A DNA stretch of 64,000 bases from Escherichia phage CLB_P2. The stretch is taken from sequence record OL770107. One strand, 5' to 3'. Below, in pieces: positions 3,803 through 47,054 of the stretch; the stretch's first letter is position 1; each line of letters begins with the position of its first letter. Below the pieces are notes generated by a model that did not search any database, was not told the origin of the DNA, and worked only from the letters and a program-made list of their open reading frames with translations. The translations under genes were made by a program, and so were the position numbers.

Positions 3803-3836
3803 GTTTACAAGGTCTGTAGATATGATACTATAGACC
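3803..3836 (+). promoter_or_regulatory. early-type promoter with inverted repeat around the -10
   Basis: GTTTAC 3803-3808, TACTAT 3826-3831; GGTCTGTAG / CTATAGACC inverted repeat flanks the -10. Confidence 0.5.
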
Positions 3837-3859
3837 TATCAACTAATGAGGAAAATAAA

Positions 3860-4087
3860 ATGGCTAAGGTTAATATTGATATCGTTGATTTTGAATACAC
3901 TTACGAAGTTATCCGTAATCGTTATCCTTCTTTGACTATGACTTATATCAAAGACACACAATTCTGTAGTATGCAAATTGAAGTTCAAGGTCCTCTTGAA
4001 GACCTTACCCGCTTTATGGCTGATGAATATTGTGATGGTATGCATGCTGAAGACGCTGAATTTTATATGGGCTTAATTCAAAAATAA
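3860..4087 (+). CDS. hypothetical protein (75 aa)
   Basis: ORF preceded by SD GAGGAAAA and an early-type promoter. Confidence 0.55.
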
Positions 4088-4089
4088 GT

Positions 4090-4125
4090 GTTTACCTAAG
4101 GCTATGGTAGTGATACTATAGCCTT
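4090..4125 (+). promoter_or_regulatory. early-type promoter with inverted repeat
   Basis: GTTTAC 4090-4095, TACTAT 4114-4119; AAGGCTAT / ATAGCCTT inverted repeat. Confidence 0.5.
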
Positions 4126-4145
4126 ATCAACTTGAGGAGAATAAA

Positions 4146-4385
4146 ATGAAATTACAACGCGAATCAATCAAAGATTCTGAAGTTAAAGGCAAATGGTACT
4201 TCACAATCCAAGGTAACAATCCGGAAGCTCTGGAAAAAGCCGAACAAGCTTTGTGTGAAATGGGTTGGAAAGATGAGTGTGATGGGTGTCCTCTTTATGA
4301 AGATGGTAGCTCATCTGGTTTCTGGATTCACCATTCTGATGTTGACCAATTTAAAGCCGACTGGAAAGTCGCTAAGAAAGCGTGA
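4146..4385 (+). CDS. hypothetical protein (79 aa), Cys-containing
   Basis: ORF with SD GAGGAGAA upstream. Confidence 0.55.
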   Translation: MKLQRESIKDSEVKGKWYFTIQGNNPEALEKAEQALCEMGWKDECDGCPLYEDGSSSGFWIHHSDVDQFKADWKVAKKA

Positions 4386-15756: not shown

Positions 15757-15794
15757 GTTTACAACACGGTAGGACTGTGGTATAGTAGTCCTAC
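15757..15794 (+). promoter_or_regulatory. early-type promoter with inverted repeat
   Basis: GTTTAC 15757-15762, TATAGT 15781-15786; GGTAGGACTG / TAGTCCTACC inverted repeat around the -10. Confidence 0.5.
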
Positions 15795-15816
15795 CGAAAC
15801 AAATGAGGAAATCGAA

Positions 15817-16371
15817 ATGGGTAAGTTCTTTGAAGAGCGTAAGTTTTATAAGTTCATTAGCGAATACACTAAAAACAAATTCACTAATAACGGCTCTTAT
15901 GGCCTCAATACAGCTTTTGCCAAGTATGTAGGTATGAACCCGTTTGAAGTTGAAATTGATTACCATAATGGGCGTGAACGTGTAAGCCGAATTCGTGTAT
16001 ATGACGAGATGATGTTTGTCGACCCTAGCAAAATCACAGGTAATCCTGATGATGCAAATGCTGTTCTTTTTAATTCAACAGGCCTTTTTGGCCATGAATT
16101 CGATTACTTTATTGAAGTGGTACGTCCACTGGCCTCGGTGAGTATTCCTGAAAATGGTGGACCTAAACCAGTAAAAGCCACTGCGGATTGGAAAGTGCTT
16201 ATCGTTAAAAATGGTAAGATTGAAGTTCATTCTCGCCATAACACAAAGGAACAAGCCGACCGTCAAGCCGAAGAGCTTTTGACCAGTTCGTTCCAACAAG
16301 TGTGTTATATTGTTAAAGGCGACGTTACCCAAGCTACCACTACCAAACAACTTAAGTTGGAGACCATCTAA
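15817..16371 (+). CDS. hypothetical protein (184 aa)
   Basis: ATG at 15817 with SD GAGGAAA, downstream of the promoter at 15757. Confidence 0.55.
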   Translation: MGKFFEERKFYKFISEYTKNKFTNNGSYGLNTAFAKYVGMNPFEVEIDYHNGRERVSRIRVYDEMMFVDPSKITGNPDDANAVLFNSTGLFGHEFDYFIEVVRPLASVSIPENGGPKPVKATADWKVLIVKNGKIEVHSRHNTKEQADRQAEELLTSSFQQVCYIVKGDVTQATTTKQLKLETI

Positions 16372-19481: not shown

Positions 19482-19521
19482 GTTTACTTTGGTACAGGTT
19501 GTGTTATTATAGACCTGTACC
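19482..19521 (+). promoter_or_regulatory. early-type promoter with inverted repeat
   Basis: GTTTAC 19482-19487, TATTAT 19505-19510; GGTACAGGT / ACCTGTACC inverted repeat. Confidence 0.5.
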
Positions 19522-19551
19522 AAATAATACGAAAACAAACTGGAGAATAAA

Positions 19552-19917
19552 ATGAACTACATCAACTTCGAACGTAAATATGTTTCTAACGGTATCGCTG
19601 GTTCTTCTGAAGTTATTTGTCTGTGGAAACACAACAACGGCACAGTGTGTGAAATCGAACAGTGCATGACTCCTAACTACGTTTATATGCGCTTTGAAAA
19701 TGGTATCACAGTTTCAATCACTATGGAAGGTTCTACTTTTAAAATCGCTTTGGACGATGATTTCCGTCAACGTGATTTAGGTACCCATCCTTGCTGGAAC
19801 GGTTCTAATCGTAAGCTTCTGGTTAAAACCTGGATTCGTCACATCCTGAGCAACCGTGCTAAACCTGAACACCTGGAAGCAATCTTTGATGTAGTTCTGA
19901 ATGAATTTGATATCTAA
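19552..19917 (+). CDS. hypothetical protein (121 aa)
   Basis: ORF with the same leader and SD as 19109..19477. Confidence 0.6.
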   Translation: MNYINFERKYVSNGIAGSSEVICLWKHNNGTVCEIEQCMTPNYVYMRFENGITVSITMEGSTFKIALDDDFRQRDLGTHPCWNGSNRKLLVKTWIRHILSNRAKPEHLEAIFDVVLNEFDI

Positions 19918-43333: not shown

Positions 43334-44341
43334 ATGTTCAAGAAATATAGCAGTCTGGAAAACCACTACAACAGTAAGTTTATCGAAAAACTCCGTACCA
43401 ATGGTTTGACTGGTGGTGAATGGGTAGCACGTGAGAAGATTCACGGAACCAACTTTAGTTTAATCATAGAACGTGACGCAGTCACATGCGCCAAGCGCAC
43501 TGGCCCAATTCTCCCTGCCGAAGATTTCTATGGCTATGAAATTGTACTTAAGAACTATGCTGATTCTATTAAATCTGTTCAACATCTAATCGAATCCATT
43601 AATTATCAGTCATATCAAATTTATGGCGAGTTCGCTGGTACAGGTATCCAGAAGAATGTGGATTATGGCGATAAAGACTTTTATGTATTTGATATCCGTG
43701 TTACTAAAGAAGATGGTACCGAATCCGTTTTAACTGATACCCTTATGGAAGCTTTCTGTATTATTCATAAGTTTAAGGTTGCTCCGTGCTTAGCCACAGG
43801 TAGCTTTGAAGACCTTATTAAACTGCCGAATGATTTTGATTCTGTTATCCCAGATTACAATTTTGCAGTGGATAACGCAGGTTTAACCATTGCTAACTCA
43901 ACCGATTTTATTCCTAAGGTCGAAGGTAAAGTATTTACGGCTGAAGGCTTTGTACTGAAACCTGATGTTCCTATCTGGCTGCCTAATGGAAATCGTGTAG
44001 CAATTAAATGCAAGAACTCTAAATTCAGCGAGAAGAAAAAGTCTGATAAGCCTATTAAGGCCGCAGTAATATTGTCCCAAGACGATATGGACTTGATGTG
44101 GCAATTCACCGATTATGTGACTGTTAACCGTATTAACAACGTTATCAGTAAGATTGGTGAAGTATCACCTAAAGATTTTGGAAAGGTAATGGGACTGACG
44201 GTCCAAGATATTTTGGAAGAGGCAGCCCGCGAAGAATTAGAATTAACCGATGCAGAAAACCCTGTTGAAGTTAAAAAGCAGCTTATCGAGTGCGTTAAAG
44301 ATACGCTACGAGCTGTGTGGATTGAATTAGTATCCAAATAA
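43334..44341 (+). CDS. rnlB: RNA ligase 2 (335 aa)
   Basis: Near-identical N-terminus to remembered T4 Rnl2 ([20 protein letters not shown]...[32 protein letters not shown]). Confidence 0.95.
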
Positions 44342-44376
44342 ACAATAAAGGGACCTTACGGTCCCTTTTATTTTTC
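44341..44376. terminator. bidirectional terminator (rnlB on plus, gene-24 paralog on minus)
   Basis: GGGACC-TTAC-GGTCCC hairpin flanked by AACAATAAA and TTTTATTTTTC. Confidence 0.65.
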
Positions 44377-45648
44377 TAGTGGTGGAAGTTTAACACCGAG
44401 ATAAGAACTCAACTGACTTTGATTAGCCATTTTGTCCATATCCGAACCATCAATAATGCGAGCTTCTTTATCGTCCTTAGCGACGGTATAAGGGTTTGCA
44501 GTCAATGCATAACGAGCAAGCAATGCTACTGTAGGTTGTAAGCTTTCCGGGTCAACAATAACCTTAAATTCACCTACTGAAGTATCACCTTCTTCATCAA
44601 CCACATCCAAACCTTCCGTATAAGGCGCATAATATAAAGATGCGACCGTCTGTCCTTCACCCATCTGAGCATTTACACCAACAATAACATAATCACATGG
44701 ACTATTCATATCGGCATAAAGAGGTAGACCATTCTTTAATACACCATAAGCCAATTCATCTTGGTCTTCCTTTTTCTCAACCCAACCGGAAGCGGCGAGA
44801 ATAGCAGCACAACGAGAACTAGCTACTGCATAAGTCCCAGCGAAAGAAGTTTGACGTTGGACGGCAGAGTTCATCTCACACATGTAATAATATAATGTAC
44901 GAGCACGGTCCTGGGCATTATCATAACGTGGGTTAGTAAGGTCCAATACGCCCTTTTCAGAAACACCTTGGACTTTAAAACGAGAACTCACCGTAATTAA
45001 TGACTGTAATACGTCCTTATTAATTTCTTCTGCCATTTGAATGCCTAGCAGATTTTCAATGAAATTAGGAGCATTAAATCCGTTTGATTCTAGGTCTTGG
45101 GCCAATTCGACTGTCAACGAAGTTTTCAGTTTACGTGATTTAACTTCAGATTGCCATTTGTCAATACGGAAGCCTGCTTCAGCAATTTCAGGATGGCCTT
45201 GTTCGAATTTAGAAGTAATAGCAGCATCTGATACCATACGAATATGTCCGGCCGCCACTGCTTCAGAAATAACTTCACCGAGGTCGGTTTCCGTGGTTCC
45301 GGCGAAAGGAGATGCTTCTAGAACTTTAAACACTACACTTTCAAACTGGAACATATCGCCGGCTGCATAAGCTGTAGACGAATCGGTAAATTCAGGAATA
45401 TTTTCACGTTCCGACATACCAATCTGACCTGCAAATGTGGCGCCACCAAGATAAGTCATTTTGTCGTCAGGATTAAGTACACGAACCCCGTACAGAGCGG
45501 CCACAGGTTGGCTTGTTTTTTGTTCAGCAACTAGGGCTTTAAAGATTCGTTTATTAGTTGCTTGGGTGTATGAAAGAAGAGCAGGACGGCCAACCGAGTT
45601 GGCAGCCGTCAATGTGGATTCTTTAATTAGGTCTATAATCTTAGACAT
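44368..45648 (-). CDS. gp24-like capsid vertex protein paralog (426 aa)
   Basis: Collinear similarity to the adjacent gp24 along the whole length (about half the residues shared at both termini, e.g. SLQPTVALLARYALTANPYTVAKDDKEARIIDG). Confidence 0.85.
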   Translation of the reverse strand: MSKIIDLIKESTLTAANSVGRPALLSYTQATNKRIFKALVAEQKTSQPVAALYGVRVLNPDDKMTYLGGATFAGQIGMSERENIPEFTDSSTAYAAGDMFQFESVVFKVLEASPFAGTTETDLGEVISEAVAAGHIRMVSDAAITSKFEQGHPEIAEAGFRIDKWQSEVKSRKLKTSLTVELAQDLESNGFNAPNFIENLLGIQMAEEINKDVLQSLITVSSRFKVQGVSEKGVLDLTNPRYDNAQDRARTLYYYMCEMNSAVQRQTSFAGTYAVASSRCAAILAASGWVEKKEDQDELAYGVLKNGLPLYADMNSPCDYVIVGVNAQMGEGQTVASLYYAPYTEGLDVVDEEGDTSVGEFKVIVDPESLQPTVALLARYALTANPYTVAKDDKEARIIDGSDMDKMANQSQLSSYLGVKLPPLEK

Positions 45649-46931
45649 TAATCAGCCTCGTAAATAATTGCTGGAAGTTTAACACCAAGCAGATAGGACA
45701 TATTACTCTGACCGGCCATTAAATCCATATTGGTTGCATCGATAACACGAGCTTCTTTATCGTCTTTAGCTACGGTGTACGGGTTAGCGGACAGTGCATA
45801 ACGAACCATCAGAGAAATAGAAGGCTGTAATGAATCCGGGTCGACAATAACCTTATAAGCACCAACGTGTTCTTGGTCGTCTAAATCCAGGCCTTCTGTA
45901 TATGGGGCGTAGAAAATAGAACCGACAACTTCATTACCACCATAGTTCTCTTTAACACCTACGATAACATAATCCAATGGGCTGTTAACGTCGCAGAACA
46001 GAGGTAATCCATTCAACAAATAACCATAGGCCGTTTCTGGGAGCCAATTATTATCTTCAGGTCTATGTTTTAACCAGCCAGAACCTGCAAGCATTGCAGC
46101 CACACGACTTGAAGCCACAACAAACGTACCTGAATAAGAAGTAGTTTTCTGGATTTCAGAATTCATCTCACAAACAATTTCATAAAGTTTACGTGCAGAT
46201 TCTGGAGCACTATCATAAGTCAAATCGATGATGCCATTATCAGATACACCCGTAACTTTATAGCGTTTGGATACGGTTATTAGAGATTGCAGAACATCTT
46301 TATTAATTTCATCTGCCATTACCGTAGCCAGGAGGTCTTCTAAGAATGCAGGGGCGTCGAAGCCATTTGATTCCATATCCTGTGCTAATTCTACGGTCAA
46401 AGCAGTCTTCAATTTACGGGTCTTAACAGGGGCATTCCATTTATTAACCTGGAATACAGCATCAGAGATTTCTACATCACTCTCTTCAAATTTAGTGGTA
46501 TGGGCTGCATCAGGAACCAAACGACACGTTAATGACACCAAACCTTCTTGAAGAGCATCGGCCAATTCTGTAGCGCTAGTGGATGCGAGTGGGCTTGCTT
46601 GAAGAGCCTTATAAACCACATTCTGATACTTAAAGTAGTCACCCTTGGCAATCGCCTGGGCTTTATCTGTGAGTTCCGGGATAGTTTCACGGTCTTTAGA
46701 ACCAACTTCACCACCATAAACTGCACCGGTTTGGAAACTGAATTCATTATCAGGGGTAAGATATTTGACACCATACAACGCAGCGATAGGTTGGTTTGTA
46801 CGTTGTTCAGCGATGATATCGCGATAAATTAGTTTAGTGGTAGCACGGGTCAAAGCAACAAGATTAGGGCGACCCAATGAGTTGCTGGTAGTAGTTGTTG
46901 ACTCGCGCAGTAATTCGTTAATCTTTGCCAT
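45648..46931 (-). CDS. 24: capsid vertex protein gp24 (427 aa)
   Basis: N-terminus MAKINELLRESTTT.SNS.GRPNLVALTRATTKLIY and C-terminal region match remembered T4 gp24; same length. Confidence 0.92.
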   Translation of the reverse strand: MAKINELLRESTTTTSNSLGRPNLVALTRATTKLIYRDIIAEQRTNQPIAALYGVKYLTPDNEFSFQTGAVYGGEVGSKDRETIPELTDKAQAIAKGDYFKYQNVVYKALQASPLASTSATELADALQEGLVSLTCRLVPDAAHTTKFEESDVEISDAVFQVNKWNAPVKTRKLKTALTVELAQDMESNGFDAPAFLEDLLATVMADEINKDVLQSLITVSKRYKVTGVSDNGIIDLTYDSAPESARKLYEIVCEMNSEIQKTTSYSGTFVVASSRVAAMLAGSGWLKHRPEDNNWLPETAYGYLLNGLPLFCDVNSPLDYVIVGVKENYGGNEVVGSIFYAPYTEGLDLDDQEHVGAYKVIVDPDSLQPSISLMVRYALSANPYTVAKDDKEARVIDATNMDLMAGQSNMSYLLGVKLPAIIYEAD

Positions 46932-46959: not shown

Positions 46960-46967
46960 TATTTATA
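46960..46967 (-). promoter_or_regulatory. late promoter TATAAATA for gene 24
   Basis: Plus-strand TATTTATA about 30 nt upstream of the gene 24 ATG on the minus strand. Confidence 0.5.
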
Positions 46968-47007
46968 AAAGTTGTTTACAGCAAGGTTCCCACGTGTTAC
47001 TATAGTA

Positions 47008-47038
47008 CAGAAACAAGAATGGGAGACCGAAGTCTCCC
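47008..47038 (-). terminator. terminator after gene 23
   Basis: GGGAGAC-CGAA-GTCTCCC hairpin followed on the minus strand by ATTCTTGTTTCT. Confidence 0.6.
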
Positions 47039-47054
47039 ATAATAAGGTTAGGTC

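Follow-up and report, generated by a model that had tools for sequence, protein, structure and literature searches.

What could an early promoter transcribe when it lies between two late capsid genes and faces the wrong way? The question is raised by a motif at positions 46974-47003 of the window, by which we mean the whole 64,000-nucleotide stretch of Escherichia phage CLB_P2 that was analysed. The motif is on the plus strand, within the 123-nt gap that separates two minus-strand ORFs, genes 24 and 23. The first-pass annotation had located its parts exactly, as a re-reading of the sequence confirmed: GTTTAC at 46974-46979, an 18-nt spacer, TACTAT at 46998-47003, and a palindrome at 46998-47007. 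It had offered two explanations, namely early antisense control of gene 23 or a chance match. The features of the locus are collected in Table 1.

Table 1. Features of the gap between genes 24 and 23 and of its borders (positions in the window).
Feature	Position	Strand	Basis and remarks
Gene 24, capsid vertex protein, 427 aa	45648..46931	-	In the ORF list; 'precursor of head vertex subunit' in dhaeg; late gene lying 3' on the minus strand
Gene 24 late promoter box TATAAATA (plus strand TATTTATA)	46960..46967	-	Direct reading; back to back with the early promoter
A/T-rich stretch TATAAAAGTT, UP-element-like	46964..46973	+	5' of the -35; fits the family consensus AAAAAAGT ahead of GTTTAC
-35 element GTTTACA	46974..46980	+	Invariant in 9/9 ORF-bearing relatives from four genera
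Spacer, variable between relatives	46981..46994	+	Mean majority fraction 0.60; seven distinct sequences in nine relatives
Extended -10, TGT then TACTAT	46995..47003	+	TG ahead of the -10 confirmed by the sigma-70 scan
ATAG microhomology	47002..47005	.	JS10/JS98 alignment; deletion junction between 47005 and 47006
Predicted transcription start	47009..47011	+	Purines 6-8 nt past the -10; from promoter geometry
Stem-loop ATGGGAGAC-CGAA-GTCTCCCAT	47019..47040	both	On the minus strand, intrinsic terminator of gene 23 with a UUCG loop and the tail UCUUGUUUCU (47018-47009)
Gene 23, major capsid protein, 519 aa	47055..48614	-	ORF list; dhaeg annotation; plus-strand read-through would enter it antisense

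The motif is bordered on both sides by elements of the late genes. The late promoter box of gene 24, six bases away from the early -35 element, was invariant in all 12 aligned genomes. A late promoter is annotated at the same place in fPS-65, and the RB69 late promoter Pl:109573 was predicted at the homologous place (PMC1524935 Additional file 3). The hairpin on the other side has a stem of nine pairs, five of them G-C, with minimum free energies of -15.8 kcal/mol for a 61-nt minus-strand segment and -17.5 kcal/mol for a 67-nt plus-strand segment. The annotations of G28, Melville and fPS-65 list it as a terminator. The terminator scan called it on the minus strand only (tail TCTTGTTTCT). On the plus side the tail, AATAAGGT, contains no U-tract and was not called by the scan, so that the hairpin does not qualify as a bidirectional terminator. 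The absence of a T-run on this side, already pointed out in the first-pass annotation, was thus borne out. Another hairpin at 44347-44368 (AAAGGGACC-TTAC-GGTCCCTTT), with a plus-strand 335-aa ORF (43334-44341) on one side and the minus-strand gp24 paralogue on the other, is terminator-like on both strands and, unlike the gene 23 hairpin, looks truly bidirectional. Two gp24-like vertex protein genes are present in tandem (44368-45648 and 45648-46931, 426 and 427 aa, respectively). They are called 24a/24b in JS98, JS10 and IME08, and constitute a known Dhakavirus feature.

Judged by its sequence, the segment 46974-47003 is a T4-type early promoter possessing every sequence feature of this class. 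The T4 early consensus is made of GTTTAC at -36 to -31 and of an A-rich region at -40 to -44 (PMC1524935). Here, GTTTACA (46974-46980) agrees with the GTTTAC(A/T) expected near -36 to -31, and the -35 is preceded by ATAAAAGTT, which corresponds to the A-rich, UP-like stretch expected at approximately -40 to -44. The 18-nt spacer counted from GTTTAC is AGCAAGGTTCCCACGTGT (46980-46997). When the -35 is taken as TTTACA (46975-46980), the spacer is 17 nt long, and the TG at 46995-46996 (-15/-14) makes the -10 an extended one. The resulting TTTACA-17-TACTAT conforms to the T4-type arrangement (TAnnnT, spacing of 17 +/- 1 nt, GT-rich/TGn). The -10 region reads ACGTGTTACTAT, compared to ACGTGGTACTAT in the family consensus, and the commonest -10 among the phage's own early promoters is precisely TACTAT with (A/G)TGn in front. 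A middle (MotA-dependent) promoter was considered and rejected, the distance between the box and the -10 being 17-18 nt, not 11-13, and the box being GTTTAC, not TGCTT. One attribute of T4-type early promoters is absent from the window: no correctly oriented gene lies 3' of the promoter, whereas such a gene is found in 11 relatives. The search for a hidden small ORF 3' of the promoter returned merely a 7-codon frame inside the hairpin, devoid of a ribosome-binding site, and an Rfam search of the site returned sub-threshold noise only.

The specificity of the motif was evaluated at several levels. A generic sigma-70 scan of the window produced 13 matches as compared to 11.1 +/- 3.9 in shuffled sequence, and did not separate the site from background. 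The phage-specific pattern GTTTAC-N17-19-TANNNT was present 11 times in the window, for 2.95 +/- 1.76 expected, with 10 of the 11 occurrences on the plus strand. Eight other matches to this pattern have an ORF downstream and, in most of them (42948 is an exception), a conserved leader and ribosome-binding site, TATAGACCTATCAAC...ATGAGGA...AAAATG, lie in between. With a matrix made from these eight sites, the candidate scored 27.1 bits and the next-best untrained site 14.9 bits (128 kb, both strands). A larger matrix was made from 32 ORF-linked promoters of the window and of the rest of the dhaeg genome, a close proxy, with leave-one-out scoring. The candidate then scored 33.9 bits, higher than 31 of the 32 leave-one-out scores. 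When the score was restricted to the flanks, i.e., to the positions outside the search pattern, it was 17.5 bits, against a random mean of -18.9 +/- 8.7, and none of 20000 random positions reached this value. A second match, GTTTAC-N18-TATCAT, is located at 46187-46216 (+) within gene 24. Its flank-only score of -26.6 bits is that of a chance match, and it serves as a negative control. The existence of an early-type promoter on the strand opposite the late genes and aimed at gene 23, as claimed in the first-pass annotation, is upheld by both the sequence and the matrix score.

Comparison with close relatives indicated what is missing. The 801 bases around the site were 100% identical to those of dhaeg and CLBP2, and 99.9% identical to those of dhabil, all of them Dhakavirus. 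Over 24 kb, the window was 98.3% identical to dhaeg and dhabil, and thus comes from a near relative of dhaeg, distinct from dhaeg proper. The other Dhakavirus matches split the 801-nt query in two, with approximately 294 extra bases in between. In JS10 and JS98 these extra bases are annotated as an 88-aa CDS on the plus strand, opposite genes 23 and 24. The window coincides with JS10 from the start of gene 24 through ...GTGTTACTATAG (ending with TACTATAG), and the identity resumes at TACAGAAACAAGAATGGGAGAC... (TACAGAAAC) and extends through the hairpin. The segment absent from the window (JS10 L002 1907-2200, 294 bp) comprises the leader ACCTATCAAAACATGAGGAGATTAAAAATG, the ribosome-binding site, the ORF and its TAG stop codon. 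It is flanked at both ends by ATAG (L002 1903-1906 and 2197-2200). According to this alignment, the event is a 294-bp deletion at a 4-nt microhomology.

The perfect palindrome TACTATAGTA (46998-47007) is, by the same alignment, the scar of the deletion, since JS10 reads TACTATAGAC at this place, which is not palindromic. Its interpretation as a binding site was rejected by this comparison with JS10, in which it corresponds to the deletion junction. The -10/+1 region is now joined to the 13 nt preceding the hairpin. Positions from -4 onward were altered by the deletion (AGACCTA to AGTACAG), and this could shift the choice of the start site or the promoter strength. In the window, the leader consensus TATAGACCTATCAAC of the ORF-linked promoters is interrupted precisely where the junction lies.

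Among 50,697 phage records, the junction was present only in dhaeg, dhabil and CLBP2, and approximately 50 Dhakavirus records retain the ORF. It was not found in the IMG/VR and JGI metagenome contigs. The confinement of the junction to three records and its absence from the metagenomes point to a recent event in one small clade. The ranking of identities (JS10 97.8%, JS98 93.2%) suggests that the clade of the window is nested inside the ORF-bearing Dhakavirus. No relocated copy of the ORF was detected by tblastn at E <= 0.1 in the window and the rest of dhaeg. As the flanks have not diverged from JS10, too little time has passed since the deletion for decay to occur, and the retention of the promoter is therefore uninformative on selection.

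The lost ORF corresponds to orf173 of JS98, an 88-aa member of phrog_6003 (E 2e-49) with unknown function. A tblastn search with this ORF gave matches in 120 phage records. The Pfam search gave nothing above threshold and a literature search on JS98 orf173 returned nothing relevant. By its phrog_6003 and tblastn matches, orf173 is a real, conserved gene. The promoter was found at the same place in approximately 50 other Dhakavirus genomes, in Mosigvirus, in Gaprivervirus and in one Tequatrovirus, where it drives orf173, sometimes followed by segD. Thus, orf173 occupies the same place and strand in Dhakavirus AnYang and fDHCT2, Gaprivervirus VR7 and SP18, and Tequatrovirus G28; it is followed by segD in Dhakavirus IME08 and by a homing endonuclease gene in Mosigvirus mobillu. 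In T4, segD is alone in the gap, on the strand opposite genes 23 and 24.

The situation in RB69 is particular, as the gap contains two short ORFs, apparently a frameshifted version of orf173. ORF188c and ORF189c (L015 9292-9532) indeed look like a single frameshifted orf173 (KYGAKVNGNAFNKV in RB69 vs KFGTNPNGNAVNALV in JS10). This frameshift would be a second, independent decay of orf173, or a sequencing error. In Tequatrovirus vB_EcoM-G28 (L014 147-516), promoter and orf173 are present as a cassette, with a promoter region that does not differ from those of Dhakavirus JS98 and IME08. The cassette thus seems to have been exchanged across genera, through recombination within the conserved capsid genes on either side. 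An unrelated myovirus, the Acinetobacter phage ABPH49, carries a homologue of orf173 (41% identity) amid small hypothetical genes (L006 1501-1767). On account of this homologue, orf173 may be regarded as a widely travelling small phage gene.

The promoter was aligned in nine ORF-bearing genomes from four genera. In addition to the -35, the -10 hexamer positions 2, 5 and 6 (including A-11 and T-7) were invariant. Such a pattern, with an invariant -35, a variable spacer and fixed -10 positions, is the footprint expected of a functional promoter. A lack of conservation in relatives had been proposed as grounds for dismissing the motif; it is conserved, GTTTACA being the same in the nine genomes. 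The whole 24/23 gap of 16 genomes was then scored with the matrix. The eleven gaps containing orf173 and/or segD showed 21.7-33.9 bits at the same position, the T4 gap (ATTTAC-18-TATTAT) among them showing 22.8 bits. The four empty gaps of T2, Yersinia phage fPS-65, Klebsiella Jiaodavirus phiA85 and Salmonella phage Melville scored -20.2 to -5.8 bits, which is the background level (best score per random 100-nt window, mean -14.9, maximum 5.7). The window was the sole empty gap with a high score, 33.9, among the 16 genomes. In the alignment, the gaps of T2, fPS-65 and phiA85 (81-83 nt) contain the late promoter and the terminator and nothing else; in the 96-nt gap of Melville, the promoter is reduced to a TTTTACA remnant. 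With four empty gaps at background, the promoter did not show the conservation independent of a coding cargo that would be expected of a dedicated antisense regulator of a late gene. By this comparison the promoter belongs to the cargo gene and not to the regulation of gene 23, because T4-like phages with an empty 23/24 gap are without it. These phages evidently need no plus-strand promoter here for the proper expression of genes 23 and 24.

We propose that the element is, with high probability, an intact sigma-70-dependent T4-type early promoter that lost its gene by the 294-bp deletion, and that it is a remnant rather than a device for the control of the capsid gene. In the ancestor, the promoter would have transcribed orf173 on the strand opposite the late genes, and transcription would have ended at the terminator hairpin shared with gene 23, an arrangement that persists in most present-day Dhakavirus. 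In the lineage of the window, dhaeg, dhabil and CLBP2, a deletion between the two ATAG copies would have taken away the leader, the ribosome-binding site, the ORF and the stop codon. The host sigma-70 polymerase would still initiate at approximately 47009-47011 in the first minutes of infection. The product would be a non-coding RNA, folding into the hairpin from about +10 to +31. Owing to the lack of a U-tract on the plus side, a fraction of the polymerases would probably go on antisense into the 3' end of gene 23. This antisense transcription would be ended by Rho acting on the untranslated RNA, or by the AsiA/Alt/Mod shut-off of early promoters before the late genes are expressed. The search for Rho-loading (C>G) regions on the plus strand revealed no convincing one in the first 300 nt and modest ones farther in. 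Genes for AsiA, MotA, Mod-type ADP-ribosylases and the late sigma factor gp55 are present in the lineage, and a T4-type early-to-late switch is therefore expected. In T4, the shut-off of -35-dependent promoters comes before late gene expression, with the reservation that AsiA has a weaker effect on TGn promoters in vitro. JS10 has the gene 23 hairpin, with an identical tail, behind the stop codon of the ORF, and T4 has a similar hairpin behind segD. For this reason, antisense read-through would be an old property of the locus that was not made for regulation. The element is therefore better regarded as a remnant, recent and probably neutral, than as a regulator.

Other explanations were weighed against this one. 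A chance resemblance to a promoter in A/T-rich intergenic DNA would agree with the generic sigma-70 scan, in which there was no excess over shuffles, and with the presence of a GTTTAC...TATCAT match inside gene 24 at 46187. However, the candidate outscores 31 of 32 genuine-looking promoters, its flank-only score is matched by 0 of 20000 random positions while the match at 46187 obtains only -26.6, and the site is conserved in four genera. Chance has a practically negligible probability, and this alternative of the first-pass annotation was ruled out by the matrix scores, the cross-genus conservation and the comparison of the 24/23 gaps. The history of the locus might also be read in reverse, the empty promoter-plus-terminator arrangement being ancestral and the ORF having been inserted 3' of an existing promoter in the other phages. 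Formally, ATAG at both ends fits an insertion that duplicated its target as well as it fits a deletion, and cassette exchange does exist, as in Tequatrovirus G28 with its JS98-type promoter and ORF. But this order of events would need a cargo-less promoter retained in the common ancestor of four genera, whereas the ORF and the promoter are paired in all four, the empty state is limited to three near-identical records, and the family leader is cut at the junction in the window. The reverse order is highly improbable. The polarity, which rests on parsimony and on the truncated leader, is unlikely to be other than a deletion here, as opposed to an insertion elsewhere.

Cis-antisense transcripts are found in phages, with T4 'anti-late' RNA and lambda OOP as examples, the 'anti-late' RNA having been described from early T4 infection in the 1970s. 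A plus-strand transcript of the present locus would similarly be complementary to late mRNA, with the difference that here there is no conservation apart from the cargo gene. In early antisense control of gene 23, such a transcript would silence leaky or premature gp23 expression or prime mRNA decay. Read-through into gene 23 is plausible with a hairpin lacking a U-tract on the plus strand, and the predicted start falls within the sequence complementary to the terminator tail of gene 23; an RNA from it, however short, would therefore be antisense to the 3' end of the gene 23 mRNA. A T4 dRNA-seq preprint mentions 22 antisense start sites. A literature search on 'anti-late' RNA returned nothing relevant. 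Yet the promoter is missing from the cargo-less gaps of T2, fPS-65, Klebsiella phiA85 and Melville, it has elsewhere a protein-coding target with its own ribosome-binding site, and the arrangement in the window is the product of a rare recent deletion. Early promoters, in addition, act minutes ahead of the late genes, the AsiA and Mod shut-off genes are present, and antisense RNA that is not translated is a natural target of Rho. Antisense control is improbable and finds no comparative support, the promoter of the relatives driving a coding gene and their empty gaps having no promoter. The early-type promoter, its orientation and the hairpin without a T-run are thus what stands of the first-pass annotation, and neither of its two readings is the preferred one. 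The promoter and the hairpin might also make up a neo-functionalised small RNA gene, yielding a stable short RNA (approximately 32-60 nt) with a function of its own. With about 10 nt from promoter to hairpin and a stable stem, the transcription unit would be compact. There is, however, no U-tract to set the 3' end and no match to an Rfam family, and the arrangement is only as old as the rare recent deletion, with no sequence change since; such a gene is extremely improbable. There is only a slim chance that the deletion made a compact transcription unit by accident, in which the hairpin and/or a read-through antisense RNA would pair with the 3' end of the gene 23 mRNA and measurably change the stability or timing of the capsid mRNA. 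If this were true, the clade would offer a natural experiment on how antisense regulators arise in phages.

The reading of the element as an orphaned early promoter can be compared with known systems. It shares with the T4-type early promoters (Pe) the A-rich upstream stretch, GTTTAC(A/T), TGn with TAnnnT, and the spacing of 17-18 nt. It differs from them by the absence of a gene 3', the first coding sequence met being gene 23 in antisense. At the homologous site of RB69, Nolan et al. 2006 had predicted the early promoter Pe:109605 (PMC1524935 Additional file 3). This promoter (GTTTACAACGTATTTGGTATGTGATACTAT) has the same position in the 23/24 gap and the same strand, back to back with the gene 24 late promoter. 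RB69 differs in retaining a downstream frame, apparently frameshifted (ORF189c/ORF188c), whereas the window has none.

The T4 segD locus, which carries a GIY-YIG homing endonuclease gene, occupies the same gap and strand and shares the hairpin with the CGAA/UUCG loop. The cargo is different, segD instead of orf173. Upstream of segD, the sequence ATTTAC-18 nt-TATTAT is located at L008 3754-3783 on the minus strand (NC_000866, approximately 107,253-107,282), back to back with the gene 24 late promoter. According to a 2010 review, no segD-specific promoter was found and a very low expression was expected (PMC2988022). In a 2022 time-resolved omics study, segD was classified as early RNA and middle protein, and the protein was detected (PMC9697503 supplement). 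The homologous promoter-like site of T4 would reconcile these two reports.

The locus also recalls the PeSL (promoter-early stem-loop) cassettes of RB49 and phi1, through which small ORFs are gained and lost (Arbiol et al. 2010, PMC2839356) and in which a stable stem-loop at or beside the promoter terminates transcription coming from upstream. In both cases, a strong early promoter precedes a small dispensable ORF of unknown function in a conserved module, and the ORF is gained or lost between close relatives. The difference lies in the repeat, which is here only 4 bp (AGGT/ACCT in JS10, the 3' arm being deleted in the window), and in the breakpoints, which correspond to the 4-nt microhomology and not to two recombining cassettes. 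Elsewhere in the window, early promoters at 2726-2800, 3803-3880, 4090-4170, 15757-15830, 19482-19560 and others have a common leader, TACTATAGACCTATCAAC...ATGAGGA...AAAATG. In many early promoters of the window, the -10 lies between the arms of a 6-9 bp inverted repeat (AGGTCT/AGACCT or GGTAGGACT/AGTCCTACC, for example), an organisation resembling the PeSL of RB49 and phi1.

For annotation, the lesson of this locus is that a promoter of consensus quality in a late-gene cluster need not mean regulation of the late genes. Comparison with close relatives reveals the promoter as what a lost gene has left behind. In T4-like phages, the 23/24 gap appears as a small hotspot, for which six states were observed: empty; promoter only; promoter and orf173; promoter and frameshifted ORF; promoter, orf173 and segD; and promoter-like site and segD. 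The T4 segD gene, said to lack a specific promoter, is preceded by an early-type promoter-like site at the homologous position, and this would explain the early behaviour of its RNA. If the orphan promoter is active, the phages of this clade would provide a clean natural test of the cost of early antisense transcription into gene 23.
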